Positions 30,183 through 61,814 of a DNA stretch of 64,000 bases are shown here, in pieces. Within the stretch, counting starts at the first letter, position 1; each line of letters opens with the position of its first letter. The notes below the pieces were generated by a model. It did no database searches. It saw only the letters and a program-made list of their open reading frames with translations, and had not been told where the DNA came from. The DNA lies in IMG/VR virus record IMGVR_UViG_3300045988_121917, positions 1 through 64,000 of that record, one strand, 5' to 3'. Origin of the DNA: a virus. The translations under genes and the position numbers were made by a program.

Positions 30183-30824
30183 ATGAATGTAGTTACAATA
30201 GATTTTGATATTATTATGGAACCAAGTATTAGTTTTTATAATAATATGGTAGATATTGAAGACCCAATGAAAGATTATGTAGATAAATTTTCATTTCTTA
30301 CAAATATCCCTGCTAATTTATATATTTATGATTATCTAACTCGCTATATTGTACGTGCGGCAAAGCAAAATCAAGAAATTTATTTTGTAAATAGCCATGA
30401 TAAAGTGATTGATATTCTTAAAACAATTCCTCATGATGAGCAGATTGATTTATATAATATTGACCATCACCATGATTTAGGATATGACATGGAGCCTTCA
30501 GACTGGATGCGCCCAATGTTTAAATATGATTTAAGTAACTGGGTTAAGTATGCAAGAGATAAGAAGTTGGTTGATACTTTTTATTGGGTTCATAATGAAA
30601 ATTCTGACCCTTATCCAAACGAGGCCGCAAGATATGTTACAGAAGATTATGTCTTAAAAGACTTTAATTTAGAAGATGACAAATATGCTCCAGATGTTTT
30701 AATTATTTGCTCTTCTTTTGAATGGATTCCACCAGTTTATCAACCATTGTTTTATTCATGGAATACCATCTGTAGTGAAATCACAGGAAAAGAATATCCT
30801 TTTGACAGTATTGAAAAAATATGA
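30183..30824 (+). CDS. hypothetical protein
   Basis: 213-aa ORF with RBS AGGAGAAAA. Confidence 0.5.
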   Translation: MNVVTIDFDIIMEPSISFYNNMVDIEDPMKDYVDKFSFLTNIPANLYIYDYLTRYIVRAAKQNQEIYFVNSHDKVIDILKTIPHDEQIDLYNIDHHHDLGYDMEPSDWMRPMFKYDLSNWVKYARDKKLVDTFYWVHNENSDPYPNEAARYVTEDYVLKDFNLEDDKYAPDVLIICSSFEWIPPVYQPLFYSWNTICSEITGKEYPFDSIEKI

Positions 30825-35770: not shown

Positions 35771-35844
35771 TTTATCCATCGCAAAAACCATATATAGTGT
35801 TAAGACTTAAAAAATTTTACTAAATATAGATGGAGGGATACAAT

Positions 35845-38163
35845 ATGTTAGAAGTTCAAAAACGAAATGGTGATATTGTCCCATTTGATAAAGAAAAAAT
35901 TATTGACGCAGTAAATAGAGCGATGATTGAAGTAGATAAAATCCTTTATGAAACAGATACTTCAAAAGATATTGCCACTGAAATTGAAGAAATGGCTAAA
36001 CGCTCTAAGACAACTATTTCTGTAGAAACTATTCAAGATTGCGTAGAAGATTTATTGATGCAATCTGAAAGAAGAGATGTTGCAAGAGCGTATATTCGTT
36101 ATAGATATAAGCAAGAAGCAAAGAGAGAACATGAGGCAGTTTTTATTAAAACTTATAGTGAAAAATTGGAAGCCCGCAATGTTCAAAATCAAAATGCTAA
36201 TGTAGATGAACATTCTTTTGGTGGACGTATGGGTGAAGCAAGTTCAGTTATGACAAAAAAATATGCTTTAGATTATATCGTATCTAAAATGTCAAGAGAT
36301 AATCATTTAAACAATGAGATTTATATTCACGACTTAGATAGTTATGCTGTTGGAATGCATAATTGTTTGTCACTACCTATAGATGATTTACTCAGAGATG
36401 GTTTTAATACTCGCCAAACTGATGTTCGTCCTGCTCAATCAGTTAATACAGCTTTTCAGCTTTTAGCAGTATTATTTCAATTACAATCATTACAGCAGTT
36501 TGGAGGAGTATCTGCTACTCACTTAGACTGGAGCATGGTTCCTTATGTTCGTAGAAGTTTTTATAAGCATTTCTTAGATGGTGTTAAATATTGTCAAAAA
36601 GGTCAGATGCTTGGATTAGCCGGAATTTATGAAGATTTTGATTTATCTAATGCAAAAGATATGTGGATTAAAGCTGATGCTTCTATTAATGATGATGTAT
36701 TTGTTAGAAATGAAGCTGCTTATAAATATGCTATGGATATGACAACAAAAGAAACTTATCAGGCTGTAGAAGGAATGTATCATAATCTTAATACATTGCA
36801 ATCTCGGAGTGGAAATCAGTTACCTTTTACTTCTATTAATTATGGCACATGTACTTTACCAGAAGGAAGATTGGTAACAGAAGCTTTATTAAATGTATCT
36901 ATTAAAGGTATTGGAAAGCTTCATAAAACTTCTATTTTTCCTTGTGGAATTTTCCAGTGTATGAAAGGAGTTAATCGTGAAGAAGGAGACCCAAATTACG
37001 ATTTATTTAAACTCGCATTACGTTCAACCGCCACAAGACTGTACCCAAATTATGCTAATGTAGATTGGTCTGGAAACGCAGGATATGACCCAGACGACCC
37101 GACGACTTACTTCAGTACAATGGGATGCAGAACTGCCAACGGATGGGATATCAATGGTTTCGGCCAAAAGAAGGATGGACGTGGAAATATTTGTCCTGTA
37201 ACAATTATTTTACCTACATTAGCGATGGAAGCTAAACAGAATTTTATGTCTCAATATGCTTTAACTGACGAAGATGCAAAAGAAGCTTTTGCAGTTGAAT
37301 ATTTCATGACTCTTTTAGATGAAAAAATTCATCAGGCAAAAGATATGTTAATTGAACGTTTTGATTGGATTTGTTCTCAGGATGCTTCTGCCGCAACTTT
37401 TATGTATGAGAATGGTACAATGAAAGGATATATTCCAGAAGAAGGAATAAGAAGTGCATTGAAGCATGGAACTTTAGCATTAGGTCAGTTAGGACTCGCT
37501 GAGACTCTTCAAATTCTTATTGGTACAGACCATACTACTCCAGAAGGAATGAAACTGGCTAAAAGAATTGAACAGTTATTTAAAGATAGATGTGCGGAAT
37601 TTAAAGAAGAATATAAACTTAATTTTGGAGTATATTATACTCCGGCTGAGAACCTTTGCTATAAAGCTTTAAAAAACTTTAAAGCAAAATATGGTGTAAT
37701 TGAAAATGTAAGTGACAAAGAATTCTTTACTAATTCAATTCATGTTCCAGTGTGGAAAAAAATGTCTCCATTTGAAAAGATTGATATTGAATCTCAATTA
37801 ACTGGTTATTCATCTGCGGGATGTATTACTTATATTGAATTAGATTCCGGTATTAAAAATAATCTTGAGGCATTAGAGCAAATTGTAAATTATGCTATGG
37901 ATAAAGATATTCCATATTTTGCGGTCAATGTACCAAATGATACATGCCTTGAGTGCGGCTACACAGATGAATTTAATGATAGATGTCCTATTTGCGGAAG
38001 CACTCATATCCAACAGCTTAGAAGAGTTACTGGATATTTAACAGGAAATTATAAAACTGCTTTTAATCTTGGAAAACAAGATGAAGTTGAACATCGTGTT
38101 AAGCATGGAGGAAGAAGAGAATGGGCGCAGATAAAACCTGGCACGACAAAGAAGAATACTTAA
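35845..38163 (+). CDS. nrdD: anaerobic ribonucleoside-triphosphate reductase (class III RNR)
   Basis: ATP-cone-like N-terminus, C-terminal Zn ribbon CLEC...CPIC, and glycyl-radical motif RVTGYLTG. RBS GGAGGGA before the ATG at 35845. Confidence 0.9.
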   Translation: MLEVQKRNGDIVPFDKEKIIDAVNRAMIEVDKILYETDTSKDIATEIEEMAKRSKTTISVETIQDCVEDLLMQSERRDVARAYIRYRYKQEAKREHEAVFIKTYSEKLEARNVQNQNANVDEHSFGGRMGEASSVMTKKYALDYIVSKMSRDNHLNNEIYIHDLDSYAVGMHNCLSLPIDDLLRDGFNTRQTDVRPAQSVNTAFQLLAVLFQLQSLQQFGGVSATHLDWSMVPYVRRSFYKHFLDGVKYCQKGQMLGLAGIYEDFDLSNAKDMWIKADASINDDVFVRNEAAYKYAMDMTTKETYQAVEGMYHNLNTLQSRSGNQLPFTSINYGTCTLPEGRLVTEALLNVSIKGIGKLHKTSIFPCGIFQCMKGVNREEGDPNYDLFKLALRSTATRLYPNYANVDWSGNAGYDPDDPTTYFSTMGCRTANGWDINGFGQKKDGRGNICPVTIILPTLAMEAKQNFMSQYALTDEDAKEAFAVEYFMTLLDEKIHQAKDMLIERFDWICSQDASAATFMYENGTMKGYIPEEGIRSALKHGTLALGQLGLAETLQILIGTDHTTPEGMKLAKRIEQLFKDRCAEFKEEYKLNFGVYYTPAENLCYKALKNFKAKYGVIENVSDKEFFTNSIHVPVWKKMSPFEKIDIESQLTGYSSAGCITYIELDSGIKNNLEALEQIVNYAMDKDIPYFAVNVPNDTCLECGYTDEFNDRCPICGSTHIQQLRRVTGYLTGNYKTAFNLGKQDEVEHRVKHGGRREWAQIKPGTTKKNT

Positions 38164-38318
38164 AACAAGCAAAAGAATGTAAATATTGTAGAGAACTAGA
38201 TGCAGATGATACTTTATATATGGCAAACGACTGAGATGGCGGAGTAGGATTTGAATATATCAGGCATATTAAATACTGCCCTATCTGCGGCCGCAAGCTT
38301 TTTAATTGGGAGGAATAA
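38121..38318 (+). pseudogene. small zinc-ribbon ORF (CKYC...CPIC) interrupted by an in-frame TGA
   Basis: Frame-0 ORF from ATG 38121 to TGA 38232-38234. It continues in the same frame to TAA 38316-38318 and contains a second CxxC. Could be recoding, a pseudogene, or a sequencing error. Confidence 0.2.
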
Positions 38319-38323
38319 TTATA

Positions 38324-38803
38324 ATGCGTTATGCAGGAATTATTAAAAATGATTTTTCCGCCGCTCCTGGAATAAGTGTAACTTTTTTTACACAAGGTTG
38401 CCCTCACAAATGTGAGGGTTGCCACAATCCAGAGACTTGGGATTTTGAAGGCGGAGAAGAAGTTACTCATGATACTATTTTAGAGGTTATTGAAGCTATT
38501 ACTGCTAATGGATTACATCGTAATTTATGTATTATGGGAGGAGAGCCTCTTTGCCCAGAAAATCAATTTTTGACTAATTTAATTATTAATTCTGTTAAAG
38601 AAAAACTTCCTGACACTAAAATTTATTTATGGACAGGATATTGTTTAGAAGATTTAGATATGAGTAATAATAGAATTAAATCAATACTTGAGCAAGTAGA
38701 TTGCATTATTGATGGTCCTTATGATAAAACAAAAAGAGATGTTTCTTTATTTATGAGAGGTTCATCTAATCAACGAATTTTATATAAGGGAACTGATTAT
38801 TGA
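38324..38803 (+). CDS. nrdG: anaerobic RNR activating protein (radical SAM)
   Basis: CPHKCEGC CxxxCxxC cluster near the N-terminus, about 160 aa, immediately after nrdD. RBS GGGAGG. Confidence 0.85.
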   Translation: MRYAGIIKNDFSAAPGISVTFFTQGCPHKCEGCHNPETWDFEGGEEVTHDTILEVIEAITANGLHRNLCIMGGEPLCPENQFLTNLIINSVKEKLPDTKIYLWTGYCLEDLDMSNNRIKSILEQVDCIIDGPYDKTKRDVSLFMRGSSNQRILYKGTDY

Positions 38804-41025: not shown

Positions 41026-41400
41026 ATGTATACTTTAATTATAAATAATGGCGAATTACAATGCCATATTAAAAGCTTTACAGAAGGCTTAGAATTAAAA
41101 GAATTACCAGATAATTCTGGTAAGAAAGAAACTACAGCGGCTTTATATATTACCACTTATATTTCTGCAGATAATGGTGAAAATATAAATACTTTTGATA
41201 ATATTAGTTTAGTAGATTTTCTTCCATATTTTAAAGTTGATAATTCTATTAAGAATATAACTATTAAAGATGAAGAAAAAATTGTTTTTGAAACTACTAA
41301 ATATACGTCTATCTCAAATGCAAAAGGAGATTATGACCAAACTGCTGAAGTACCAGAATATTATATAGATATTTCTTTTCAAACAAATCCAAGACTTTAA
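41026..41400 (+). CDS. hypothetical protein
   Basis: 124-aa ORF with strong RBS AAAAGGAGAGAG. First gene of the radical-SAM operon. Confidence 0.45.
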   Translation: MYTLIINNGELQCHIKSFTEGLELKELPDNSGKKETTAALYITTYISADNGENINTFDNISLVDFLPYFKVDNSIKNITIKDEEKIVFETTKYTSISNAKGDYDQTAEVPEYYIDISFQTNPRL

Positions 41401-41414
41401 AAAGAGGTGATTGA

Positions 41415-42656
41415 ATGGCAAGAATAGTATATACAGGTCAGCCAATTCAAGCCTCTACTATTAATGACTATTATAATAGATTGGATGCTATTAGAACTTG
41501 GAATGGTAGATATTCTGCTATTTCTAATCGAGGAAGCGTTGGTAGTGGTGTTAGAATAACCAGCGCACAAATTATGAATGAAATTTTTAAAAGTGTTGTA
41601 GATACAAAAAATACTGTTTCATTTGTAAGTGGTGTTTCAATCTTAACTCCTATTGGAGTTAGTCAAGGCACTTCCGCAATTGGAAAAAAATCCATGGCTC
41701 AAATTGAAAAAAGTATTGGAATGATGGAACAAGCTTGTCGAGAATATTTTTCAAGCAATCGTGGAGGCTTTAATAGTTCTAATTATGGTGTTTTTGGTAG
41801 CTTTAGTTCTAATAGATCTGGACATAATGGCGCACATAGAATTTCTAATGATACCAGTTTTAATGTAATTGGTAATAATTCTAATAGAAGTGGTTATAAC
41901 GGTGGCCATAGAAGCGGTTATTTTGCTTCTAATAAAAGTAGTAATAATGCTTCTAATAGAAGAGGTTATAATAATGCTTTTAGAAATGGACATCATAATA
42001 CTTTTAACAGTGGATTTTTTAGTACCAAATGGGCAAGTAATAACGGTTCAGATTTTAGTTCTTTTGGAAGTAATAGTTCTAAATTTTCAGAAGTTCATAA
42101 TGGTAATCATAGTGGATTCAAAACCGGAAAATATCATCATCATTACTCTTATTGGGTATTTAACTGGGCCAGTAGTGGAAGTAAAGACGTTCAATTATCA
42201 GGTAATGCTCTTAAAAGAGGTAACTTCCAGGGCCATAACGGTTCTAAATACTCTGGAAATGGAAAAAATAGCACTAATAGAACTACTGTTAATAATGCTA
42301 AAAGAAGTTCTTTCCAAAAAGGTGGATATACTGCAAATAATAATACTAAATATACAGGACATACAACTGGTTGTTCTGGAAATAACTCTACTAATTTTTC
42401 CAGTGTTGGTACTCAATGCGTAGGAGATAATGCTTCTAATTATTCTGGAAATGCTACTGGATATACAGGTTTCTTTACTTCAAATTGTCCAAGTAATTTT
42501 AGTACAAATGATTCCAGTGTAAATACTTGTCCAAGTAATTTTTCTGGAGTAAATAGCAGTAATTTTAATTCTGTTAATACTGGTAATTTTAGTAATGTCG
42601 ATAAACGATGCTTTGTAGTTCATAGTAGCTATACTGTAGAAGGCGTTGATTTTTAA
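41415..42656 (+). CDS. Ser/Asn/Gly-rich repeat protein with Cys-containing C-terminal repeats, a candidate radical-SAM substrate
   Basis: Globular N-terminus of about 110 aa. Repeats SNRSGHNGAHR, SNRSGYNGGHR and SNRRGYNNAFR. Very many NxS/T triplets. C-terminal NCPSNFS and TCPSNFS repeats with 5 Cys. RBS AAAAGAGG. Confidence 0.55.
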   Translation: MARIVYTGQPIQASTINDYYNRLDAIRTWNGRYSAISNRGSVGSGVRITSAQIMNEIFKSVVDTKNTVSFVSGVSILTPIGVSQGTSAIGKKSMAQIEKSIGMMEQACREYFSSNRGGFNSSNYGVFGSFSSNRSGHNGAHRISNDTSFNVIGNNSNRSGYNGGHRSGYFASNKSSNNASNRRGYNNAFRNGHHNTFNSGFFSTKWASNNGSDFSSFGSNSSKFSEVHNGNHSGFKTGKYHHHYSYWVFNWASSGSKDVQLSGNALKRGNFQGHNGSKYSGNGKNSTNRTTVNNAKRSSFQKGGYTANNNTKYTGHTTGCSGNNSTNFSSVGTQCVGDNASNYSGNATGYTGFFTSNCPSNFSTNDSSVNTCPSNFSGVNSSNFNSVNTGNFSNVDKRCFVVHSSYTVEGVDF

Positions 42657-42686: not shown

Positions 42687-44111
42687 ATGATAGAAAATAA
42701 TGAAAAAATTTATTTTACAAATATAACTTTATTTACTACTGCTTTATGTAATCTTAATTGCGGATATTGTTATATTTGTAAAGATGCTACTGGATGTTTA
42801 AAACAAATAGATGATGATTTGGCTAAAGATTTTGAAAATGGAAGTCAAATTAAACAAGTCTATGATGTTGATCCAGAAGCAGATAAACATATTAAGCATA
42901 TTACTTTATGGGGAGGAGAACCTTTTCTTCATATAGAACGTTTTATAGATCACTTTGAAGAATATACAAAGGCTTTTCCAAACTTTAATGAATTAGATAC
43001 TTCAACAAATTTTACTCTTCCAAACCAAGTTGAATCTTTAAAAAGATTATTTGATACAATTATTAAATATTATCATGGTAATCAAAAATTTCATTTTGAT
43101 CTTCAGGTCTCAATTGATGGGCCTGAAGAGATGAATGATTTGGGAAGAGGTAAAGGAGTTACTCAAAAGTTCTTAAAGAATTTTAGAGATTTATGTGAAT
43201 TAGAATTTGATGATTCTAAAATTGATTTATATGTTCATACTAAACCAACTTTTTCAAAACCTACATTTCATTTTGTAGATACACCAGAAAAAGCATATGA
43301 ATGGTTTGAATTTTTCGATAGAGAAATGTATCAGCCTTATAAGAATAGAAAAACTCGAAAATGGTGTTTCTTACCATGTCTTTTCAATTATGCAACTCCA
43401 GCAGAATGGACAAAAGATGATGGACTTGAAGTGGCAAAGATTTATCGTTCAATCCAAAAGGTAACTCCAAAAATAAAACAATTAGATGGATGGATTCCTA
43501 ATTATGAAACTTATATTCCAAGCGTAGAGTTCTTATTAGGACGATTAAAAGATAATAATTCATTTAATAAGAAAAAATGTTTGGATTGTTCAAAGCCATT
43601 CTGCGGCGGAGGATGCGGTTCATTTTCACATGTAGTAGTTCCTATCCATGATGGAAAATATACTATGTGTCATAGAGGTATGTTTGATGATTATGTAGAT
43701 TATCATAATAATATGAAAGACCATGCTGATATGAATGGACTTGCCGCAAAATATGTTCAGACAAATAATGAATCTGCTTGGATTTATGATAAAGATCAGT
43801 TCTTAAATCTTAAAAAGACTTTTGACAATCTTATCCTATATCCTCATCAAATTTTTTATACAGATTATGTTAAGTTTGTATATGAATATGCAAAAGCAGG
43901 TATCATTGATGAGAAATGGACTGATATGAGTAAAATTGATAAAACGATTGCTATTTTTGTTGATAAATCATGTTGTTTACAAGATTCATATATTATTACT
44001 GGCTCTTGGATAACATCAAATCCATTAGAAATTCCATTGTGGTATAATGGAGCTATGGATGTAGTTGAAGAAGAAATTGACAGAGTAATGGCGGAAAGAG
44101 GTATTGTATGA
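42687..44111 (+). CDS. radical SAM / SPASM-domain enzyme (anSME-like)
   Basis: CNLNCGYC cluster, GGEP motif, anSME-like VSIDGPEEMND, C-terminal Cys cluster CLDCSKPFCGGGCGS...C. RBS AAAAGGAG. Confidence 0.85.
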   Translation: MIENNEKIYFTNITLFTTALCNLNCGYCYICKDATGCLKQIDDDLAKDFENGSQIKQVYDVDPEADKHIKHITLWGGEPFLHIERFIDHFEEYTKAFPNFNELDTSTNFTLPNQVESLKRLFDTIIKYYHGNQKFHFDLQVSIDGPEEMNDLGRGKGVTQKFLKNFRDLCELEFDDSKIDLYVHTKPTFSKPTFHFVDTPEKAYEWFEFFDREMYQPYKNRKTRKWCFLPCLFNYATPAEWTKDDGLEVAKIYRSIQKVTPKIKQLDGWIPNYETYIPSVEFLLGRLKDNNSFNKKKCLDCSKPFCGGGCGSFSHVVVPIHDGKYTMCHRGMFDDYVDYHNNMKDHADMNGLAAKYVQTNNESAWIYDKDQFLNLKKTFDNLILYPHQIFYTDYVKFVYEYAKAGIIDEKWTDMSKIDKTIAIFVDKSCCLQDSYIITGSWITSNPLEIPLWYNGAMDVVEEEIDRVMAERGIV

Positions 44112-45502
44112 CATTTCAAGAACAGCAAGATTTACTTTTAAAAAATTATTTATTCAGATATGATAAAGATGAAAATTCTGTTGAATTTATTATTACATCT
44201 GCATGTAATCAAAAATGTGAGTATTGTTATTTATACAGATATGGCGATGAAATGTATCCTCCAGAAGCCAATAAGAAAGAAAATATTCTTAGAAACTTAG
44301 CTCTATTATTAGATTGGCTTGACGAAAATGATTACCAGTATACAACTTTTGATATTTTTTCAGGTGAGTTTTTTCAAATCCCTTATTGGGAAGATGTTCT
44401 AAATGTTTTTTATGAACATCAAATAAATACTCCTAACGTTCCAAGAAGAGATTTTGTTATTCCTACAAATATGTCTTTTCTTATGGATGATGAAAAAACA
44501 GCAAGAGTTGAATATTGGATGAATAGAGTCAGAGATGATGTAAAACATTTCAATGGCTTTTGGTTAAGTGTTTCTGTAGATGGACCAACAGAGTTAGAAT
44601 CTGTTGAAAGAGGACTTAAAAATGGTCAAATAAAACAAGACAAGTTTTATGATAAACTTTTTAAGTTTATTGCAAAGTATTCTCTTTCTTGTCACCCTAT
44701 GATTACAAGAGAATTTGTAAAGAATTATAAACGTAATTATGACTGGTGGATTGATAATATTATTAAATATAATGTTATCTTTAAGAAAGAAAATGGATGT
44801 GAAGTATATTCAATTCCAATGATGTTAGAGGTCAGAAATGCGGAGCAGTGGGATGAAGAATCTTTAAAGGATTATAGAGATTTCCTTCTTTATGTAGCGG
44901 AAAAAGACTTAAATACGCTTCATAACGGAGATTTAACAGATTTTGCATATCATATGGCAGATAACTTCTCTGATGGGATGATGAATATTGGAAAATATAA
45001 TCATGTACAGCCATACATATTAGCTCTTCCAGAAATACAACATAAATTACCATGTTCAATTCAAGGCGGTTCAATTTTTAGAGTCGGAGATTTAGCAATT
45101 GTACCTTGTCATAGAACTTGTTATCCTGATAAAGTTTATGGTTTTCTTGAATTAAATGAAGATAAAACTAAGATTATTGGAGTTCGTGGAGAAAATCCTA
45201 TGCTTGCATATAAAATTAAGACTCTTAATCAAAATCGTTCTTTTATGAAATGTGCTGGCTGTCCTATTAAAAGCTTTTGTATGAAAGGTTGTCTAGGAGC
45301 GCAATATGAAGATAGAAAAGAACTTTTCTGCGCTATTGATGAAGTATGTGAAATGTTTAAAACTAAATATCGTACTGTTAATGATATAGCTGAAAAATAT
45401 GGCGTTTATGATATTATTTTAAATGATTTGAAAATTCCAAAAGAAAGAAGGGAGTTTATAAAATATGCAAGAGATATTATCAACAGATACTTGTATGACT
45501 AA
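44108..45502 (+). CDS. radical SAM / SPASM-domain enzyme (anSME-like), paralog of the upstream gene
   Basis: CNQKCEYC cluster, VSVDGPTELES, C-terminal CAGCPIKSFCMKGC. ATGA-coupled to the upstream rSAM gene. Confidence 0.85.
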   Translation: MTFQEQQDLLLKNYLFRYDKDENSVEFIITSACNQKCEYCYLYRYGDEMYPPEANKKENILRNLALLLDWLDENDYQYTTFDIFSGEFFQIPYWEDVLNVFYEHQINTPNVPRRDFVIPTNMSFLMDDEKTARVEYWMNRVRDDVKHFNGFWLSVSVDGPTELESVERGLKNGQIKQDKFYDKLFKFIAKYSLSCHPMITREFVKNYKRNYDWWIDNIIKYNVIFKKENGCEVYSIPMMLEVRNAEQWDEESLKDYRDFLLYVAEKDLNTLHNGDLTDFAYHMADNFSDGMMNIGKYNHVQPYILALPEIQHKLPCSIQGGSIFRVGDLAIVPCHRTCYPDKVYGFLELNEDKTKIIGVRGENPMLAYKIKTLNQNRSFMKCAGCPIKSFCMKGCLGAQYEDRKELFCAIDEVCEMFKTKYRTVNDIAEKYGVYDIILNDLKIPKERREFIKYARDIINRYLYD

Positions 45503-46142
45503 TGAAGTTTCTATTTTCGATTTAGCTCAAGACATTATGTTTAAAAAACAATTCGCATTAATAGATGAGTTAGATTTTAGATTAGGTAAGATAAATACGA
45601 CTGATGATGTAATTGAATCAGCCAGATTGAAAATTTATTATATCTATTATTTTATGCTTGATAATAATGAAAAAGAGTATTTTACTCATATAAAAAACTT
45701 TATCATTTTGTCTAATAATGATTTAATTAAACGAATTAAAAATACTACTGTTGAAGGTTTTTTTGATGAAGGTAAAAATACGATTGAAGAAATATACTTG
45801 AATAAATTGTTTTTAGTTCTATTAAAAGAATATGCTCCAGAGTTAAAATATACAGATTATAAAGATGACGTTTTATCTAATATGAATAAGTATATTTATC
45901 TTTTAAATGCAACTTATTTTGATGATTTCAGCTTATTTCAAGATAATGTCTTATATGGAATTTGCATTGGAAATTCTGTAGTTGATTATAAAAAATTCTT
46001 AACGGCTGCAGAGTGGGATAGATTCCAATATAGCATTTATTATTTATTTTATGGTATTAAAGAATTTCCAACAGACAATGAAATATTAGATATTGAAAAT
46101 CGTATTGAGAGTAAGGTAGACCTTCTTTATGTAAAAGAATAA
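45465..46142 (+). CDS. hypothetical protein
   Basis: 225-aa ORF with RBS AAGGGAG. Overlaps the rSAM stop by 38 nt. The start could instead be 45496. Confidence 0.45.
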   Translation: MQEILSTDTCMTNEVSIFDLAQDIMFKKQFALIDELDFRLGKINTTDDVIESARLKIYYIYYFMLDNNEKEYFTHIKNFIILSNNDLIKRIKNTTVEGFFDEGKNTIEEIYLNKLFLVLLKEYAPELKYTDYKDDVLSNMNKYIYLLNATYFDDFSLFQDNVLYGICIGNSVVDYKKFLTAAEWDRFQYSIYYLFYGIKEFPTDNEILDIENRIESKVDLLYVKE

Positions 46143-46171: not shown

Positions 46172-46963
46172 ATGATTTTTATATTGCCATCTATTTATTA
46201 TAATTTTGAAGATAATGTTAATATTTTAGATATGTATAGCAATACAGTAAAAATCAAAGGCATCGAAGGCAATTTCCCATCTAACATTATGTGTGGTGGG
46301 ATTAATGCCTTAGACACCAGATATTTTGCACTGTATGATGATATTGTGGGTTGCGTAAATAGTTATTCAATACCATCTAAAATGTTATTTGTTGACTGCG
46401 GCAACCTCTTCCTTAATGAAAAAGAATATCTAAATCGTTTTGATAAGATATTATTTGAAGAATGGGAAAATAATGATTCTGCATATTATGAAATTGCAGA
46501 TTTTAATTTGATTGATTATGTAGTGAAACGTTATCCTAATATTCAAATTGCATTACATCAAAATGCTTTATTGAGATATAATTTAAAAGAGATTCAAGAT
46601 AAGATTGATAATTGTAAAAATATTAAATATATAATCTTACCAAGACGTTATGCTCATTTAAAAGTAAAAGGCGTACAAAAGATTTACTTAATGAGTTTTA
46701 CAAAGTGTAGAGATTGTGTAAATTATTGCGATTGTTTATCTGAAGAATCTCATTATATACTTGAATATAGTGGTCATTCTACTTTTAGAAAATGTACTAA
46801 AAGATTTTATAAAGACGATAATGAATTCTTTGAAGAATATAGAAATATTCCAAAAGATTTCTCATATGTTCTGTTTGATGACATCATTCCAGAAGATGCA
46901 AATGAAAGCTATACATTAATAATTAATTTATTTGAGAGAGGGCTTAAAAATGATTTATTATAA
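46172..46963 (+). CDS. hypothetical Cys-rich protein
   Basis: 263 aa, RBS AAAGGAG. Cys cluster CRDCVNYCDC. N-terminal IYYNF motif shared with the next gene. Confidence 0.5.
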   Translation: MIFILPSIYYNFEDNVNILDMYSNTVKIKGIEGNFPSNIMCGGINALDTRYFALYDDIVGCVNSYSIPSKMLFVDCGNLFLNEKEYLNRFDKILFEEWENNDSAYYEIADFNLIDYVVKRYPNIQIALHQNALLRYNLKEIQDKIDNCKNIKYIILPRRYAHLKVKGVQKIYLMSFTKCRDCVNYCDCLSEESHYILEYSGHSTFRKCTKRFYKDDNEFFEEYRNIPKDFSYVLFDDIIPEDANESYTLIINLFERGLKNDLL

Positions 46964-47948
46964 TTTATCCGGATTTTACGAACATTTTACTTTAAATAAA
47001 TTTATTTTGGAATTGCGTGATACTAATCCTGAATACTTCAGAGACGGAATTAAAATTGGAACCTTCTTTGGTAACTTTCCATTTTGCACTTGGGACGGCG
47101 GAAGAAACTTTCCATTTTATCGCCAGGTCACAAAAGAAGAGATTGAAAAAATTAGAGACTTTTATAAGTTCTATAATATTCCTCTGAGATTAATTTTTAC
47201 TAATTCCGCAATTGAGGAAGAGGATTTATATGATCCATTCTGTAATCTTCAAATGAAATTGCTTGAAGATGGCAATAATGAGGTTGTTGTAAATTCTCCT
47301 CTTTTGGAGCAATATTTAAGAGAGACATATCCAGATTTTAAATATATTAGTTCTACAACTAAATGTTTAAATAAAGAAAAATTCCTTAAAGAACTTCAAA
47401 ATCCAGATTATTATCAAGTTTGTTTAGATTATAATTTGAATAAAGATATGGATATGCTTGAGAATATTCCTCAAGAATTACGAGGTAAATGTGAATTTTT
47501 ATCAAATGCAATTTGTCATAGCCATTGTCCTATTAGAAAATCACATTATCTCGATACAAGTAAAACTAACTTGACATATGGTAAACATAAATACAGTATC
47601 ACTGCAAAATGTCAAATTCATGGTGGTATTAATGACCCTGATACTCTTGGAAAACAGAATAATTTAACTTGGGAAGATATCCAAAAGTACAATAGTATGG
47701 GATATAAATACTTTAAATTTGAAGGAAGAACATTGCCGAGCGCAGATATTTTTTCTAATTATCTATATTATTTATTTAAACCAGAATATATTCCAATTAT
47801 TGTAAGTAAATCTTCATATGTACCAGGAATATTCTTTAATAATCCAAATTCTCAGTTCTATTTAGATATGGTAAAAAGAACTGATGCTTCATTAGATGCT
47901 GATAATGGTGTATATGCAGATGAATGCGTAATGAGTTGGCCATTCTAA
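46950..47948 (+). CDS. hypothetical Cys-rich protein, distant paralog of the upstream gene
   Basis: ATG at 46950 (MIYYNLSGFY) after a GAGAGAGGG RBS. Cys cluster CEFLSNAICHSHC. The track TTG at 46932 is unlikely to be the start. Confidence 0.5.
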   Translation: MIYYNLSGFYEHFTLNKFILELRDTNPEYFRDGIKIGTFFGNFPFCTWDGGRNFPFYRQVTKEEIEKIRDFYKFYNIPLRLIFTNSAIEEEDLYDPFCNLQMKLLEDGNNEVVVNSPLLEQYLRETYPDFKYISSTTKCLNKEKFLKELQNPDYYQVCLDYNLNKDMDMLENIPQELRGKCEFLSNAICHSHCPIRKSHYLDTSKTNLTYGKHKYSITAKCQIHGGINDPDTLGKQNNLTWEDIQKYNSMGYKYFKFEGRTLPSADIFSNYLYYLFKPEYIPIIVSKSSYVPGIFFNNPNSQFYLDMVKRTDASLDADNGVYADECVMSWPF

Positions 47949-48602: not shown

Positions 48603-48646
48603 AAAAGAGGGGATAGAATTTAATTCTATCCCCTATTATTTTTTAT
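48601..48646. terminator. bidirectional rho-independent terminator
   Basis: A-run, then AGGGGATAGAATTTAATTCTATCCCCT hairpin, then T-run. Lies between convergent + and - gene blocks. Confidence 0.85.
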
Positions 48647-51595: not shown

Positions 51596-52006
51596 TTATT
51601 TAGATTCAATAGTTGTTTTATTTTTATTAACAGCCGCTTCAATTTGTTTTGTAATGTATGTATTCAAATCACCATAGATTGCTGTCAAGTATTCTTTCGC
51701 TTCGTCATTTAAGATAGAAAGAACTGCAGTTAAGGTCATATTAAATGCTTTTTTCTGAGCTTCGGCATCGAATTTTCCTTGAGCTTTTAAGCTATCTACA
51801 TATGTTTGATTTGTAGCAATTACACAATCAGTAATTGTTTTTGACAACATTGTAATATATTTTGCGGCTAAAGCATTATCATTTTGCTTAATTAAAGCAT
51901 CTTTTTTTGTTGCGATATACTGTACTAAGTAAGCTGTTAAAATTCCCAATAATGGGATTACACATACTTCAAAAATTTGTGATAACATTTGTAAAAAATT
52001 TTCCAT
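51596..52006 (-). CDS. holin-like protein (single N-terminal TM, amphipathic C-terminus)
   Basis: 136 aa, TM VCVIPLLGILTAYLVQYIA, located next to the tail fibre gene. Possibly LL-H-type holin family. Confidence 0.35.
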   Translation of the reverse strand: MENFLQMLSQIFEVCVIPLLGILTAYLVQYIATKKDALIKQNDNALAAKYITMLSKTITDCVIATNQTYVDSLKAQGKFDAEAQKKAFNMTLTAVLSILNDEAKEYLTAIYGDLNTYITKQIEAAVNKNKTTIESK

Positions 52007-52017
52007 AATTATTCCTC

Positions 52018-55000
52018 CTATTTAACTTTAATCCAAATTCTTCCATTAACTTTTACGTTTCCTGTGCCCCAAACTTCATACTCTGGAATTTCAGAAACTG
52101 TACCAACAATACGGTCTGGATATTCTCTGACTTCTTCACGAGTCATTTTTGAAATAGTTCCATTAGGTCCAGAACAAACTGGGTCACCAGCTTGATATGA
52201 ATCTCTATCTTCATAAGGATAAGCTAATACCCTACCTGAGACCGCAATTGGTGTTTTAGTTTGTTCAGTTTTTCCAATCGCAAAGCCAAAAGTATCTGAT
52301 ACTATATTTGCTCCTGGCTGAAGACGTTTAGTTGATTGAACCAAATCTCCTAGGCCAGTTTCAATAACACATTGGCCTGGTTTAATATTTATAGTATTAC
52401 GATATTCGGCATAGTCATTCCATACTGCGCCATAAACTTTTCCCGCATACACACTAGTAGTATTATAACCTGCATGACCATTTCCAAAATAATAACTATT
52501 GATAGTTGATGAACTGTTTCTACTCCAAGATTGATAATTAATCCATATATCTCCAGAATACGCATCTGGAATAAAATTAAATTCTTTTCCGCCTACTAAA
52601 AAATCATGACCATGTTTTGCAACTAAACCACTATTATTAATTAAAGCTCCAGTCATTGTGTCACCAGATTTTTTAACATAATTACCATTAAGCGTTCCAG
52701 TATAATTACCAGTTGTAAGAATTCTATTCCAATTACCCCAAGCTGTTGCACTTGTACCAATACGAGTCCAAAGATTACCATTTGCAGTATAAGCTATTTC
52801 AATTGGATAACCACCAGACAAATCACCGCCTAAACCGTAGCTTCTCCAACTTAATAAACCAATATATGAACCTCCATCAGATAGACTATAAGTACCATTC
52901 CCTTTAAAATTTAAAGTCATACCTCTTGGAGTATCTTGTGGAGTTCTTGTTGCACTTCTAGTGTCATAAGAATCTAATCTAGCTGCTCTAGCAGCCTCTC
53001 CATTAAGATATCCATTAAATTGAGTTGCAGTAACCTGACCATTAAAATATGCAGTTCCATTTACATATAAATTATAGTCCGCAGTATCTGCATCTCTAAC
53101 AGCTCTATTGATGTATAAAGCATTATGATGTATTTGTACAGCTGGAATTACACCTAAAGAATTCCATTTTGTTTTATTACTTGGTCTAATTCCATTAACA
53201 AATATCCATCCTGCATGAGCATACATATTTGCAAATACTACAGATTCTCTGTTAGGAGTAGAGTAATAAACGCCTGATTCTAAACCTCCAGTAACGCCAC
53301 CATGATCAGCTTTTCTCCAAGTTAAGCTACAATTTCCATCTCCTATATTCACATTTCCATTTGCTGGTGCTAAAAGAATGTCTCCATAAGAGGTAGCTAT
53401 TTTTAAATGAGTACTAGATTTAAAAGTATTATCGATATTTCCATTAAAAGTAATAATAGCTCTTTGAGTATTATTACTAGCATTGAATCTAATATGAGAT
53501 TCATCTCCAGTAGATTCATTACCATAAATATTAAAATCACGATAAATATGACCGCTTCTCCATCTACGATTACTTAAGCCAAGATCCATTGCATTTGTTG
53601 AATATGGAGATATATAATTTGTGCTTCCATATAAAACATAACTATCTCCTGAAGTAGAAGTCTCAGAATTAGTAGTGCGTTTTCCCCAATACCAATTTCC
53701 ATCATTATTAACGCATAATCCATACCCTAATGTATTCGTAGATAATAAGATAGATACATGATCATTACCTTTAAATACAGTAGCTAATCTATGTCCGCCA
53801 ATTCCCCAAGCATTATTTGAATTGATATTTATTGAAACAGCTTTTGAATTATAGTTACGAATAAAATTGCTATCAGTCATATGCCAGCCACCGCCATAGG
53901 TCTCAGAATACCATCCTCCAGTTCCGATACTTCTAAACCAACTATTTGAATATACTTCATGCCAAGGATATCCAATCGTTCCTAAATTTCCATCTGTTGA
54001 AGCAACAGTTTTATTAAAAATAAAAGGAATATTTGCGCTATTATATAAATGACACCAATTAGAGTTTTGAGAACCTATTGTAATAGTATTTCCATTAGAA
54101 CTAATCTGTAATAGTCTTGGAATTTCAGCATTGCTTTTTGTGGTAGAAATTAACCAAGTTGAAACTCCACCAACATTAGTCCAAATTCCCATTCTACCAT
54201 TTGTAGCATCTAAATGAATATGTCCAGTACTATTATAAACATCTACAAATCTCTCACTTGTATCATTTGCTTTAATACATAAGTGACCAGTCATGGTATC
54301 GCCAGTTTTTAAAACATATCTACCATCTAATGTATAGGTATAATTATCAACATCTAATACTTGAACCCATTTAGAACCTACCACATTTCCACCTCTAACA
54401 ATTTTATAATAAATACTTTTATCATTAAAGGGAATTGCAACATCTGTATAATAATTATTTAATTGATTAGTATGTCTGTTTCTTAATATGTACCACCAGG
54501 CACTTGACGGAGTGTCATTAGTATCTACGGCAGCTCCAGCAGTACCACTTATATTCAACCAAGTTAATCCACCTACATCTCCAGAATTTGTACTACTATT
54601 TTCTCCTAATATACCATGAAAACATGATTTATTTGGTATAGTAAGGTTTCCATCTATGTAAGAAGCTCCATTAACTCGTAATCTATAAGCAGAATCATTT
54701 GAGTTGTAGTTATATCCAATATTAGTATATTGAAACCATGAATAACCATCTATATTAATAGCCCAATTATTCGCTCCAGAATGAGAACAAATGTCTTGTG
54801 TAAAAACCCAATTAGAATTATCTGCATTTCCAAGATATAATGGTTGTGTAGAACGATTCATTATACGAGTTGCACCAGATAATTGTCCTGCAACATCTGC
54901 GGTTCCATTAAAAGGCTGTCCCCAAATATTTCTGGTATTTAATAATTTAGTTGCTGCATAGCTACTATTTGGTTTATCAATTGAGGCAGTTACATTTTCT

Positions 55001-58000
55001 AAAGTAGTAACAAAGTCAATATTCCAATTAAAGCACCATTGTTTATATTCATAATTTTGAAAACCTACAACAACATCATGAATTTGAATTTGTGGATAAC
55101 TCCAACTAGTTGCAACATCTCCAATATAAATGACACTATTAGAAGCTGTTTCTCCATAATAAACGGGTAAATTAGATTTTGATAAGTCCCCATTATATCC
55201 TATAGAATAAGCAGTGCATTGACTCCATACACCATCATAATAATTATACCCTTTAATAGTATATTCACAACTTGTATTTGTAGAATAATTATAAATAGAA
55301 ACTTTAAAACCTAACATCGTATTAGAACGTCGTTGTGGTAAAGTAATTCTTAAATATCCTGTTTTAACATCAGCTGTAGTTACATAACTTCCTCCGTCTG
55401 GAAAAGCAATAAAGCTACTTTTTCCAACCGCACTAAAAGCTGCATAACCCTTATTATTAATAGAAGCAACATTGGTATTACCAGTTCTAAAAATCCATCC
55501 TCTATTAGAAGTGCTATTCATAGTAAAATAAGTTGCCCAATCATTGCAAACAGCTCCATGAGAGTCAAATGTATCAACTCCTGCAAAAGCAATTCCATAA
55601 GTAGGAAGTGAACCAGTTCCTCCATAGCCACCTCCATATAAAGAAATACCTTTTCCAGTATTAGAAGCTGTATTTGTAATTCCAATATGAGTTGCATATA
55701 ATGTATCAGAAAAATATCCAGTACCAGAAACTATTAAACGATGATTTGAATTAGCATCTGTGCCTATTCCAACTTGGCCATTTTGATTGATTCCAATAGC
55801 AATTACATCTGAATTACCTCGATTATCAGCATATAATCTTAATAGATTGCCTACTTCAGAACCAGTTCCAATATATTTTAATCCATATCCATAATATTGC
55901 TTAGTAGAAGTTCCAGAACCAATTTGCCATAACCAATTATCAGTATTATTTCCATTCATCCAAATTACTGGATTTTGATTATTAGCAGTAAAGTTTTTAT
56001 AAATACCACCTGAATTTGCCAATGGCTCAATAATTCCATTATCTCTAATAACTAATAGATTTTTCCAAGTAGATGCAGAATCTTCACTTTGTTGAAAAGT
56101 AAATACAGGAGTATTTGCAGTTGAATCATCTGTTGTTAATAATCTTTGTCTATATGTATCTGAGTCCCAATAAATACTTGTTCCTGCTCTAGTCATATAT
56201 ATATCATTAGCTACTCTTATATTACCTTGAAATAAAGAATCACCTTTAACATAAAAAGTATAACTTCCTACAGGAGAAGTATCTCCAATAGATACTTGAG
56301 TTGAACTGGCATAATGATGAGAAGCTTGTATTGCATTAGCTCCATTAGTCCATACTAATCTATTTGCGGTTTGTCCATATAAATTAAGATTAGTTACATA
56401 AAGAGTTCTCCATGCTAATGCTTGTGTACCTAAATCATATGCGTTAGTTTGGTTAGGATTTACATGGCTATTAAAAGTAAAATAACCTCCACCCTCCTTT
56501 ACAAAACGCATATTTCCATTATCAGAAATATCCGTTTGAATATATCCATATCTTTTAGAAGAAGTATCTCCTTTTGCAGTATACCATCCAATCCAATTAT
56601 CTCCAGATAAATATTTATTACCAAACCATCCTGCATTAGCTCTAATAGTTGCTGTGCCAGTACCACTACCAAAAATAAAAATTGATGGAATTTCTTTAGA
56701 ATCTTTTTTTCTATATCCAAAATAAACAGTATTAGAATTATTTGTTCCGCCAAAATTTATTTCATTATTAAATTCCGCATAAACTTTCATAGTACCAGCA
56801 TCTGAAGTAAAACCACCTAAAGCTTTTACTCCACCAGCAGTATTTATAGAATCAGAATCTGTATTTTCTACAGCAAATTTTTTTCCACCATAAATTCTAA
56901 CATAACTGTTGTCTTTCATATAAATACCGCCGCCATGAGCGGAATTTTGCCATCCTGTAGAAGATGTATTTGAGAAAAACCAGCCTGAAGAAGTCACATT
57001 GAAAAAATTTGGATTAGTCTTTGCATTAGCTGTTGTAGAAACTTTAACATCTGCCCAATAATAATTATTTATATAAGAGGTATAATTTGAAGAATCTAAA
57101 ACTGTACTCCAAGTTTCATCCCAAATAGAATCACCTTTTTCGCCAGCTTTTGCGCCTCTTATTGCCATATGCGGTTTAGCATCTGTAGTAATCGCTAATT
57201 GAGCGCCCCATCCAGAACCATCCCAACCAAAAGTCAAAACATGTGAATCTCCTACTGGAGGCTTTCCCGTTTTTGTAATTGAACTGGCTAATGAATAAGT
57301 TACTCTACTTTGATATTTATCTGAATTTATTTGATAGTTAATGTTTTCTTGTCTATTACTTGGATTTAAAAATAAGCTATTTGCTCTACTGGCCACAGTT
57401 GCGCTATCTGCGTTACCTTGAAATCTTGTAGATTGAATTAAATTAAAACCAGAAATACTTGCTGGCAAAATTAACTCCAATAAAGCTCCAGTTAATTTAG
57501 TAACTACACCTGTTTCACCAGTAGTTGCATTAGCAATTTTACTAATTTTAAAAGTAACATCATGATCTAATCCAGCTGTACTTACAGAATGAGCAACCCT
57601 AAAATTAGATGGATTATAAACGTACATATCTGTACCATTTTCTCCACCCCATAACCAAGTTGGTTGTCCACCTTGGCCGCTCCAATTGAATGTCATAGGT
57701 AAAGAAGTATTTCCACCTCTACCTAATTTAGCCGCTACAGTTGAAGTATCAGCATTGCCTTGAAAGCGTGTAGCTTGTAATAAATCAAAGCCAGATATTT
57801 TTGTTGGTAAATATAAATCAACTGCGGAACCAGATAAATTAGTCGCAGTACCACTTCCACCTTTAATTGCATCAGCAGTAGAAGCAATCTTAAAAGTTAC
57901 ATTATGGTCTAATTTTGCGCTATCACTGGAATGACCACCGATCCCATTTAAATCATAAGTTTTATCATTAGAACCAGTAATGGTAAAATACCAAACTGGA

Positions 58001-58533: not shown

Positions 58534-58562
58534 AAGGAAAATCCTCCTTTCTCTCTGAGTTA

Positions 58563-58591
58563 ATTATATCATAAAAACGACGTTAAGTCAA
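58563..58591 (-). promoter_or_regulatory. consensus sigma70 promoter TTGACT-N17-TATAAT (minus strand)
   Basis: The reverse complement reads TTGACTTAACGTCGTTTTTATGATATAAT, upstream of the 2171-aa gene. Confidence 0.6.
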
Positions 58592-58648
58592 TTTCATTCT
58601 ATGATATATAAAAACTTGACCAAAAATATTATTATAATTTGGCCTATT

Positions 58649-58688
58649 AAACAAAAATAAGGGGATAAGACAAAATGTCTTATCCCCT
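58649..58688 (-). terminator. rho-independent terminator (minus strand)
   Basis: GGGGATAAGACAAAATGTCTTATCCCC hairpin followed by a T-rich run on the minus strand. Confidence 0.75.
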
Positions 58689-58694
58689 ATATAT

Positions 58695-59318: not shown

Positions 59319-59342
59319 GCTTAACCCTCCTTAACTGTTTTA

Positions 59343-61466: not shown

Positions 61467-61494
61467 CTATTTTATCCCAATCCTTTCTTAGAAT

Positions 61495-61545
61495 TTTAAA
61501 AAGAGGAAAGAAAAAACTATTTCTTTCCTCTTTACTTTTTCTTTC
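61495..61545 (-). terminator. rho-independent terminator
   Basis: AGAGGAAAGAAAAAACTATTTCTTTCCTCT hairpin flanked by T-rich tracts. Confidence 0.7.
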
Positions 61546-61577
61546 AAAAGATATGAAAGAAAGAGATTCATTTATAA

Positions 61578-61814
61578 TTATTTTTGGCCAACTTCTCGCC
61601 ATTCATCCAGTTCATCCTCTGGAATAGTAACGCTTTGGACAAAAGTCTTACCATCTTTGGTAAGACTTTTTCTTGCGTCTGCTACTAATCTATATTTACG
61701 AATATAGTAAATATCTTCAAGATGAACTGTACTTGTAATTGTTCCATTAGTACCTAAATAGGTATACAAAACAGTTTTAGTCATCTTTTTAGAATCCTCC
61801 TTATTTGAATTCAA
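61578..61814 (-). CDS. hypothetical protein
   Basis: 78-aa ORF overlapping the upstream gene's stop. Confidence 0.4.
   Translation of the reverse strand: MNSNKEDSKKMTKTVLYTYLGTNGTITSTVHLEDIYYIRKYRLVADARKSLTKDGKTFVQSVTIPEDELDEWREVGQK

Follow-up and report, generated by a model that had tools for sequence, protein, structure and literature searches.

A hypervariable low-complexity protein encoded beside paired radical-SAM enzymes in large gut phages, a candidate substrate of a phage-borne modification cassette

The 64,000 nucleotide (nt) stretch of viral DNA analysed here (positions 1 to 64,000 of the IMG/VR record IMGVR_UViG_3300045988_121917, referred to as the window) carries on its + strand a gene for a 413-residue protein rich in Ser, Asn and Gly, the repeat protein. 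It is followed directly by two genes for radical S-adenosylmethionine (SAM) enzymes, rSAM1 and rSAM2, and further 3' by a pair of U32-like genes, g6 and g7; with the small flanking genes g1 and g5 they make up a cassette of seven genes. The repeat protein gene and its parts, in amino acid (aa) numbering, are:

41415 to 42656, + strand: repeat protein, the proposed cassette substrate; 413 aa, isoelectric point (pI) 9.8; assigned from its open reading frame (ORF), its homologues and the ratio of nonsynonymous to synonymous substitution rates (dN/dS).
41415 to 41744, + strand: N-domain, aa 1-110, of ordinary composition, with a predicted strand at 2-4 and helices at 13-28, 51-67 and 87-106.
41745 to 42608, + strand: low-complexity tract, aa 111-398 (288 aa), predicted disordered; hypervariable across clades and of fixed length inside the clade.
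41808 to 42023, + strand: the clearest octad repeats, aa 132-203 (SNRSGHNG, AHRISNDT, SFNVIGNN, SNRSGYNG, GHRSGYFA, SNKSSNNA, SNRRGYNN, AFRNGHHN, TFNSGFFS).
42609 to 42653, + strand: CFVVHSSYTVEGVDF, the motif at the C-terminus (aa 399-413), modelled as a strand and under the strongest constraint of all parts (dN/dS 0.06).

A Shine-Dalgarno-like sequence, AAAGAGGTG, lies 6 nt 5' of the ORF start. An initial annotation, made from the letters alone, had described an ordinary N-terminal region of about 110 residues followed by a strongly biased tract, and this description is borne out both by composition and by the N-domain being modelled as folded. Ser and Asn each make up 19% of the tract, followed by Gly (13%), Phe (8%), Thr (7%), Tyr (5%) and His (4%). 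The three 11-residue copies quoted in that annotation are indeed present, at aa 132, 156 and 180, but the period of about 12 residues given for them does not hold, as the copies are every third member of a series of 8-residue (24 nt) units with a super-period of 24 residues (spacings within the nucleotide repeat family are 24, 24 and 24 nt). At offset 8 the self-similarity of the tract correspondingly has z = 5.3 over its whole length, and between aa 131 and 205 offset 24 gives z = 5.8. More than 20 N-x-S/T triplets had been noticed; we count 25 in the tract, against 13.9 +/- 2.9 in composition-preserving shuffles, and 0 of 2000 shuffles reached 25. Cysteines are found at positions 108, 320, 335, 358, 372 and 399. 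The duplicated motifs NCPSNFS (aa 357) and TCPSNFS (aa 371) are both there, and the final Cys near the C-terminus, C399, belongs to the conserved C-terminal strand motif.

Selection was estimated from the window and 11 IMG/VR relatives of the gene. The dN/dS ratio is 0.20 in the N-domain, 0.29 in the tract and, as listed, lowest in the last 15 residues, compared with about 1.0 in the other two + strand frames of the tract, and the variable sites of the tract are distributed 91/71/149 over the three codon positions. Exactly 413 aa is the length of each of the 19 close homologues of full length (66-95% identity), the 14 that were aligned required zero gaps, and there are no indels among the 11 IMG/VR gene copies. 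Invariant positions of the tract comprise 3/3 Trp, 16/24 Phe, 7/12 Arg and 21/38 Gly, but just 10/55 Ser and 1/20 Thr. The repeat protein gene is thus real and its tract is under purifying selection. Given how extreme the composition is and that several ORFs overlap it in other frames, the ORF could have been taken for a non-functional low-complexity frame and an artefact of annotation, but the difference in dN/dS between the reading frame and the frames beside it, the skew between codon positions, the shared architecture of 49 representative homologues and the conserved synteny have already refuted this explanation, and we give it practically no weight. The three ORFs overlapping the tract had in turn been taken for low-complexity artefacts, a view that has support in each case and formal proof in two, since 41869-42423 (+) is broken by stops in 6/11 relatives and 42198-42416 (-) in 3/11. 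The third, 41751-41996 (-), stays open in 11/11 and is the I/T/S/R-rich antisense of a sense frame rich in AAT, AGT and GGT.

Profile searching among 1.84 billion representative proteins brought up the 49 relatives of the repeat protein, which share a layout consisting of an N-domain of about 100-120 aa, a first tract, a mid-element, a second tract and the C-terminal motif (single sequences and loci are given below by our P and L numbers). The N-domain ends family-wide in the motif I-E-K-x-I-G-x-x-E-x-A-C, with C108 invariant in 38 diverse members, and its profile picks up remote cassettes too. The consensus of the mid-element is F-x-Y-x-x-F-H ... K-x-T-V-H-S (the window copy is KYHHHYSYWVFNW) and that of the C-terminal motif is C-x-V-V-H-S-x-[FY]-x-V-E-G-[VIL]-D-F, which is kept in the distant members P0022, P0024, P0032, P0036, P0051 and P0062. 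Tract length and tract motifs diverge widely among the members. The initial annotation had spoken of a repetitive Cys/Asn core, but Cys is not the conserved feature of the core: C108, which closes the N-domain, is the only Cys that is invariant across the family, the Cys of the tracts vary, and several members are without the C-terminal one. Pfam, NCBIfam and PHROG scans assigned the 413-aa protein to no family (no NCBIfam or Pfam match at E <= 0.1). With the repeat protein and rSAM1 as queries, tblastn found no match among 50,697 deposited phage genomes; the low-complexity filter may mask the tract, but rSAM1 was likewise without match. Searching viral structures by fold with the AlphaFold model of the repeat protein, which is mostly of low confidence, returned nothing below E 0.49.

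The AlphaFold2 prediction, based on 38 sequences, has a predicted local distance difference test score (pLDDT) of about 70 in the N-domain, 67-75 in the C-terminal strand (406-408) and 25-30 in the tract. Since the N- and C-terminal strands are the sole two strands in the model, they may pair with each other, and the tract would then be held as a closed loop some 290 residues long. Within the tracts a residue grammar around Phe, Tyr and His is recognised family-wide, with S, T, G or A at -2/+2, N, R, K, H or an aromatic residue at -4/+4, and N at -1/+3, and this grammar underlies the 4/8-residue periodicity. Over 36 family members N-x-[ST] is enriched 1.70-fold, with z > 2 in 22/36, against 0.81-0.95 for the control patterns N[ST], N..[ST] and [ST]..N, and [FYWH]-x-[ST] is 1.44-fold enriched family-wide.

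Several candidate descriptions of the tract were tried and rejected. N-x-S/T is no universal motif of the superfamily, as the protein of L052 has 1 such triplet and that of L057 has 2, and Cys-based crosslinks do not serve as a unifying chemistry, N..C occurring at 0.67 of expectation and the tract Cys not being conserved. A likeness to nucleoporins with Phe-Gly (FG) repeats was prompted by FGFNSS and NNGFG in L022 and L023; the enrichment of [FYWH]G is no more than 1.21-fold, and FG occurs twice in the window protein, so that an FG-nucleoporin-like nature of the tract is a faint possibility. Two members of the family, P0050 (from L017) and P0068, have an N-terminal Laminin_G_3 domain, an insertion in the N-domain containing YLESTGTQYINTGY, and Trp-rich tracts (GSWSVNCS). 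Their Laminin_G_3 domain matches a PHROG named 'virion structural protein'.

The other genes of the cassette, and the hairpin that follows it, are:

41026 to 41400, + strand: g1, small acidic protein of 124 aa (pI 4.5), the first cassette gene.
42687 to 44111, + strand: rSAM1, 474 aa; CxxxCxxC at 21-28; extra conserved Cys C310, C328 and C430.
44108 to 45502, + strand: rSAM2, 464 aa; CxxxCxxC at 33-40; seven-Cys SPASM with C316, C334, C382-x2-C385-x5-C391-x3-C395 and C414.
45465 to 46142, + strand: g5, acidic protein of 225 aa (pI 4.5) with little conservation and a sequence rich in predicted helix.
46172 to 46963, + strand: g6, U32-like paralogue of 263 aa with invariant C179, C182, C188 and C208.
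46950 to 47948, + strand: g7, U32-family TIM-barrel protein of about 332 aa with invariant C164, C195, C199 and C227 (numbered from TTG 46932).
48608 to 48634, bidirectional: terminator-like hairpin with a 12-bp stem, closing the + block where the + and - blocks converge.

Both radical-SAM enzymes belong to the superfamily. rSAM1 scores 32.8 bits against Pfam PF04055 (cut-off 29.5); rSAM2 scores 22 bits, below that cut-off, and has C33, C37 and C40 invariant in 13 sequences. All ten Cys of rSAM2 are invariant in these 13 sequences at 25-61% identity, which identifies the SPASM motif, with a weak match to the SPASM model TIGR04085 (17.8 bits, cut-off 27). In rSAM1 the three extra Cys are conserved in 11 diverse sequences, and C-x2-C-x5-C-x3-C occurs in the window copy alone; the N_Twi_rSAM model gives 42.8 bits (cut-off 170), and C310, C328 and C430 could form a twitch-like auxiliary site. 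The closest NCBIfam models for both enzymes are peptide or protein maturases (GggB, PapB, twitch, YhhB, QhpD, HxsB), the best with E values of 1e-15 and 1e-12, and viperin (3e-7) and MoaA (7e-4) rank well below. The sole solved relative by sequence is the radical SAM domain of ChlB (E 3e-4 to 1e-3, covering the N-terminal core only). Neither enzyme has room for an N-terminal precursor recognition element (RRE) of the kind known for RiPPs, peptides that are ribosomally synthesised and modified post-translationally, because the cluster motif starts at residue 21 and 33, respectively.

The assignment of g7 to the U32 family follows from fold and family signal together. Of its 680 homologues some carry PF01136 or are named collagenase-like PrtC, and the Peptidase_U32 model PF01136 matches 11/43 g7 homologues (best E 5.9e-6), with window g7 itself below detection. 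Its AlphaFold2 model has a pLDDT of 91, and the only PDB fold match below 1e-3 is the U32 peptidase Mk0906 (5d88; E 9.4e-8, probability 1.00); a sequence-profile search of the PDB with g7 found nothing, so the fold search was needed. The start of g7 is likelier to be ATG 46950 (MIYYNLSG...) than TTG 46932, because the latter adds six residues found in no homologue and the former fits the N-termini of homologues. Between g6 and g7 there is weak reciprocal similarity, and a g6-like protein of L022 matches the window g7 region at 1.6e-17.

UbiU-UbiV is a heterodimer in which each subunit holds one 4Fe-4S cluster bound by four conserved Cys (PMC6747719). These proteins hydroxylate without O2 and with prephenate as the oxygen donor, and the substrates of the U32 enzymes studied to date are RNA bases and quinones (PMC10990095). 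Like the UbiU-UbiV heterodimer, g6 and its neighbour g7 are paralogues, each of them with four invariant Cys, and g7 shows the fold and family signal of the U32 Fe-S, prephenate-dependent hydroxylases UbiU-UbiV, RlhA and TrhP. The phage pair differs from these in its Cys spacing, C-x30-C-x3-C-x27-C in g7 and C-x2-C-x5-C-x19-C in g6, and in that the substrate proposed for it is a protein, the known ones being quinone precursors and RNA bases. A gene for 3-deoxy-D-arabino-heptulosonate 7-phosphate (DAHP) synthase (phrog_5045, E 9e-36) is located at 12073-12891 of L030, a prophage in Clostridiales Family XIII PM5-7, two genes 3' of the U32 pair and just before terminase; another is found in L093. 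DAHP synthase catalyses the first step toward prephenate, and its place near the L030 U32 pair fits a need for this compound.

The gene order of the window recurs in the loci of distant family members (L003, L015/L016, L018/L019, L020, L001 and L017). Compared with the window, these loci have enzymes that are 44-61% identical and a repeat protein that is about 28% identical. Outward searches with g7 and rSAM2 profiles added L022, L023, ten loci in Clostridia genomes or metagenome-assembled genomes (MAGs) and 69 IMG/VR loci; the Clostridia genomes and MAGs with the cassette include Neglectibacter, Oscillospiraceae, Lachnospiraceae, Clostridium, Family XIII PM5-7 and Faecalibacterium. rSAM1 stands directly 5' of rSAM2 in every locus, and in most of the roughly 80 loci an ORF with an N-domain-like start and a low-complexity tract comes just before rSAM1, with tract types such as FNSS, NTSNNGFG, NSNGT, WSQGxxGNG, SYGDSNARN, YDSS and VNYTFAAHC. 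The initial annotation had suggested looking for similar low-complexity proteins beside radical-SAM genes, and the linkage holds across deep divergence; homology to fibre, collagen or decoration proteins independent of radical-SAM genes was not found, and every family member with a readable context has radical-SAM genes.

The cassette follows RuvC in the window, the gene for a 1772-aa protein in L020 and for a 1787-aa protein in L046, tail-fibre-like genes in L024 and virion-structural genes in L054, and in the L030 prophage it precedes terminase. In such varied neighbourhoods it behaves as a module, and we conclude that it is both conserved and mobile as a unit of this kind. Genes for GT2 and GT8-like glycosyltransferases, an rSAM-GT2 fusion, YcaO and DAHP synthase accompany it variably. 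The fusions, of about 650-690 aa with the radical-SAM part N-terminal and GT2 C-terminal, lie just 5' of remote cassettes (L022:7825-9831, L023:2717-4678, L030:2898-4967 and L033). Two or three separate rSAM1-rSAM2 pairs are found on single contigs in L083 and L085 (3300045988_175607 and _177309) and also in L063 and L061, and one phage may run several such cassettes. In-frame stops in the cassette radical-SAM, U32 and repeat protein genes of L001, L017, L031, L048, L065, L075, L078, L089 and L090 are all TAG. There are 8 in L090 and 4 in L001, those of L017 align with Q and K of window rSAM1, and one in L031 lies between N-domain and tract. These relatives look like TAG-recoded phages, in which in-frame TAG is reported to be enriched in late genes.

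A relation between the enzymes and the composition of the tract was found when Phe content was compared between cassettes with and without the U32 pair. In 42 clusters of non-redundant loci with enough flanking sequence, where ORFs were picked automatically and kinship was left uncorrected, the substrate contains at least 5% Phe in 15/20 U32-positive clusters versus 0/22 U32-negative ones (Fisher p = 1.6e-7). The median Tyr content is 6.5% in the U32-negative clusters versus 3.9% in the U32-positive ones. A rough neighbour-joining tree of rSAM2 has clusters that are both U32-positive and Phe-rich in four or more distinct clades. Phe-rich tracts thus co-occur with the U32 pair, and this association fits the conservation of Phe and Trp in the tract, the fact that U32 hydroxylases are known to prefer carbons of aromatic rings, and the DAHP synthase gene near the U32 pair of L030.

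The repeat protein and its two radical-SAM enzymes can in some respects be compared to known maturation systems. The initial annotation had pointed to proteusins and ranthipeptides, which resemble the present system in that radical-SAM enzymes mature a long precursor or a core with Cys in it. Neither proposal stood up: no nitrile-hydratase-like (NHLP) or Nif11 leader was detected on the 413-aa protein, the PapB model gives 47.5 and 21.7 bits against a cut-off of 340 and the maturase model for SCIFF (six cysteines in forty-five residues) 14.1 against 425, and the protein has no SCIFF-like six-Cys core. In architecture the nearest analogue is the His-Xaa-Ser system (HxsA with HxsB and HxsC; TIGR03978, TIGR03977), where a repeat-rich low-complexity substrate is likewise encoded beside two different radical-SAM maturases. 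The phage system is distinct from it, however, in the scores for HxsB (23.4 and 21.1 bits versus 370) and HxsC (20.9 versus 268), in an H-x-S count of 2 with 2.3 expected, in a 413-aa substrate with folded N-domain and C-terminal strand, in being phage-borne and often accompanied by a U32 pair, and in that no counterpart of HxsD was identified.

In chemistry the nearest analogues are the cyclophane synthases of triceptides (XyeB, GrrM/OscB, FxsB, YhhB, ChlB) and QhpD. The former are rSAM/SPASM enzymes acting on aromatic-x-x motifs in repeats rich in Gly, Asn and Ser, and F-x-S is present 12 times in the window tract against 4.6 +/- 1.9 expected (2.6-fold). Small residues are enriched at +2 of Phe, Tyr and His family-wide and equally at -2, a symmetry that looks structural rather than directional. 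The cyclophane-maturase models (XyeB, GrrM, FxsB, YhhB, AmcB) give 12-36 bits against cut-offs of 310-450, and the phage system further departs from triceptides in having two radical-SAM enzymes instead of one, a substrate about ten times longer and no known leader family. QhpD, acting on QhpC, and the anaerobic sulfatase maturase provide precedents for SPASM enzymes without an RRE that work on a protein staying intact, and QhpD is the top NCBIfam match of rSAM2 (1e-8). Yet the QhpD model reaches 34 bits versus 453, and Cys and Asp/Glu, the thioether partners in QhpC, are scarce and unconserved in the tract; for the sulfatase maturase, [CS]-x-[PA]-x-R has 0 sites and TIGR03942 gives 28 and 20.5 bits versus 349. 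The phage system thus operates in the manner of rSAM/SPASM maturation but qualifies as a member of none of the systems compared here.

Taken together, we consider it rather probable that the 413-aa protein is the RiPP-like substrate of a phage modification cassette comprising the two radical-SAM enzymes and the U32 pair. The general idea of the initial annotation, a leader-like N-domain and a hypervariable repetitive core matured by radical-SAM enzymes, is supported in this respect, with the two radical-SAM genes directly 3'. The identity of the substrate, the type of chemistry and the role of the product are what we infer from these data. The N-domain and the C-terminal strand would form a small folded handle, a recognition or docking element resembling a RiPP leader, and the 288-residue disordered tract would be the core. 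rSAM1 and rSAM2 would abstract hydrogen from tract residues, leading to covalent crosslinks or other radical modifications; conservation in the tract is highest at the aromatic residues (Phe, Trp) and at the Gly/Arg anchors of the 4/8-residue grammar. g6 and g7, probably an Fe-S heterodimer like UbiU/UbiV, would add hydroxyl groups to aromatic side chains, chiefly those of Phe, in an O2-independent reaction that takes its oxygen from prephenate, a chemistry that would suit an anaerobic gut host. As the cassette is without protease or exporter and both termini are conserved, the expected product would be the whole modified protein and not a released small peptide. Our best guess, held with low confidence, is that this product is a late-expressed crosslinked polymer, possibly associated with the virion or the tail, as hinted by the tail and structural neighbours in several lineages, the Laminin_G_3 fusions and the in-frame TAG codons of the recoded relatives. 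One may go further and imagine that large phages of gut Clostridia make a crosslinked, anaerobically hydroxylated polymer rich in Gly, Asn and Arg, comparable to mussel adhesive (Phe converted to Tyr or to a product like 3,4-dihydroxyphenylalanine), as a late adhesive or armour of virion or tail, but in this specific form the idea is speculative and unlikely.

Several observations weigh against modification of the repeat protein by the cassette. The case for it is drawn from gene linkage and enzyme class. The radical-SAM scores against known maturase models (12-57 bits) are far below all curated cut-offs (170-650), so the chemistry of those maturases cannot be transferred, and a cassette with no N-terminal RRE, protease or exporter departs from the canonical RiPP layout. 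No short motif is common to all tracts, and N-x-S/T is nearly absent in L052 and L057. About 7 loci (L027, L029/L061/L063, L082, L090 and L091) show no obvious low-complexity ORF within 900 nt upstream, and the U32 pair is missing from about half of the clusters, which makes it an accessory; the uncorrected kinship in the Phe comparison is to be counted here as well. Radical-SAM enzymes of phages also act in DNA hypermodification (PMC8989533), and a non-protein substrate is for that reason conceivable.

That last point leads to an explanation in which the repeat protein is an unmodified low-complexity virion protein, such as a fibre, decoration protein or spacer, and the enzymes act on DNA bases, a nucleotide or a cofactor. 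It would agree with the predicted disorder of the tract, with the 'virion structural protein' matches of the two Laminin_G_3 members, with the position of the cassette after virion-structural genes in several lineages, and with the substrates known for U32 enzymes and for phage radical-SAM enzymes (PMC10990095, PMC8989533). What makes it improbable in our judgement is that the repeat gene is tied to the radical-SAM pair in nearly all of the roughly 80 loci in spite of unrecognisable tracts and varied contexts, that the nearest radical-SAM models are maturases, with viperin and MoaA weaker, and that Phe content tracks the U32 pair. Glycosylation offers another way to read the same tract. A mucin-like glycoprotein modified mainly at N-x-S/T or at Ser/Thr, with the radical-SAM enzymes secondary or tailoring the sugars, would account for the family-wide enrichment of N-x-[ST] and for the GT2, GT8-like and rSAM-GT2 fusion genes that flank the cassette in L003, L015, L022, L023, L028, L030, L031, L033, L055, L058 and others. 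These glycosyltransferases occur in a subset of loci, however, and have no homologue within the 64-kb window; Ser and Thr are the least conserved residues of the tract, and the L052 and L057 proteins hardly contain the sequon. We therefore regard a mainly glycosylated product as quite improbable, and glycosylation could be an added layer instead of an alternative.

The repeated short units, together with a conserved leader-like N-domain and a hypervariable core, would also be expected of a multi-core RiPP precursor, in which the 8-residue units are modified, excised as many small bioactive peptides and released at lysis. A phage precedent is SPbeta, which is related to the window by its replication module (DnaE) and encodes the RiPP sublancin. 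The units are nevertheless degenerate and without a flanking cleavage motif, the cassette has no recognisable protease or transporter, the C-terminal strand and the mid-element frame the tract, and a tract length fixed within the clade fits a whole-protein product better. Multiple excised peptides are in our opinion very improbable, and modification of the intact repeat protein by the cassette is the reading that we retain.

The genes of the cassette are separated by -38 to +69 nt and have Shine-Dalgarno-like sites 5' of them. Apart from a weak terminator-like match of 5 pairs inside rSAM1 (43601-43618), there is no comparable strong hairpin from g1 to 48608, and we propose that g1 to g7 may be a co-transcribed operon; a promoter scan gave 52 sites versus 53 expected. 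An ORF of 100-141 aa lies directly upstream of the repeat protein gene in the window and in L003, L015, L018, L020, L022, L023, L024 and L030. The ORFs at this g1 position have marginal sequence similarity, and g1 had no family match in Pfam and PHROG scans; it is possibly a chaperone or a recognition partner. g5 has a counterpart of 124-233 aa at the same position in all cassettes and no family match in profile scans. No protease or transporter family was matched in g1, g5 or a 194-aa ORF.

Elsewhere the + strand of the window encodes gyrase, NAD-ligase, DnaE, NrdD, dUTPase and RuvC, and the - strand a holin, a 2171-aa protein and a BspA-type leucine-rich repeat (LRR) protein; tRNA genes were not found within the 64 kb. 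DnaE is 39-41% identical to its counterparts in SPbeta and SPbeta-like phages of Enterococcus. A crAss-like origin, guessed from the 2171-aa ORF and the low G+C content, was dropped in view of the replication module (DnaE, GyrAB, NAD-ligase, NrdD, with DnaE SPbeta-related). Relatives are located on contigs of 117-196 kb, and the window genome has roughly 195 kb. Gene content, the SPbeta-like DnaE and the size of these relatives indicate, at the level of sequence, that the source is a large phage of an anaerobic Firmicute, and the anaerobic NrdD shows that the host is an anaerobe. Next to NrdD (777 aa) comes an ORF of 165 aa at 38306-38803 (region 35830-38803), and the same position in L018 and L019 is occupied by a small radical-SAM protein, presumably the NrdG activase. 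The holin gene (51596-52006) adjoins the 2171-aa ORF, which has no family match, and then come 207- and 707-aa ORFs and the BspA-type LRR gene (52018-63876, - strand). In L020 the equivalent block of holin and large ORF is on the cassette strand, directly upstream of the cassette. A 213-aa ORF just 5' of DnaE (30183-30824, + strand) is 33% identical (E 4.5e-28) to a 215-aa gene after the U32 pair in L030.

No description of the cassette was found in the literature searched. Maturation by radical-SAM/SPASM enzymes is known for short bacterial RiPP precursors and a few bacterial proteins, and phages here appear to use the same logic on low-complexity proteins of 170-480 residues, by a system of two radical-SAM enzymes, often a U32 pair and sometimes glycosyltransferases, YcaO or DAHP synthase, in at least some 80 loci, carried by large gut phages and by genomes of Clostridia; among large phages of gut Clostridia the cassette is common. 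The co-occurrence of Phe-rich tracts with the U32 pair offers a direct and cheap experimental handle. If the proposal is true, the cassette would represent a new class of phage post-translational chemistry, the repeat protein would be a candidate for the first protein on which prephenate-dependent U32 hydroxylases act, and the enzymes would constitute a set that crosslinks long disordered polypeptides under anoxic conditions.

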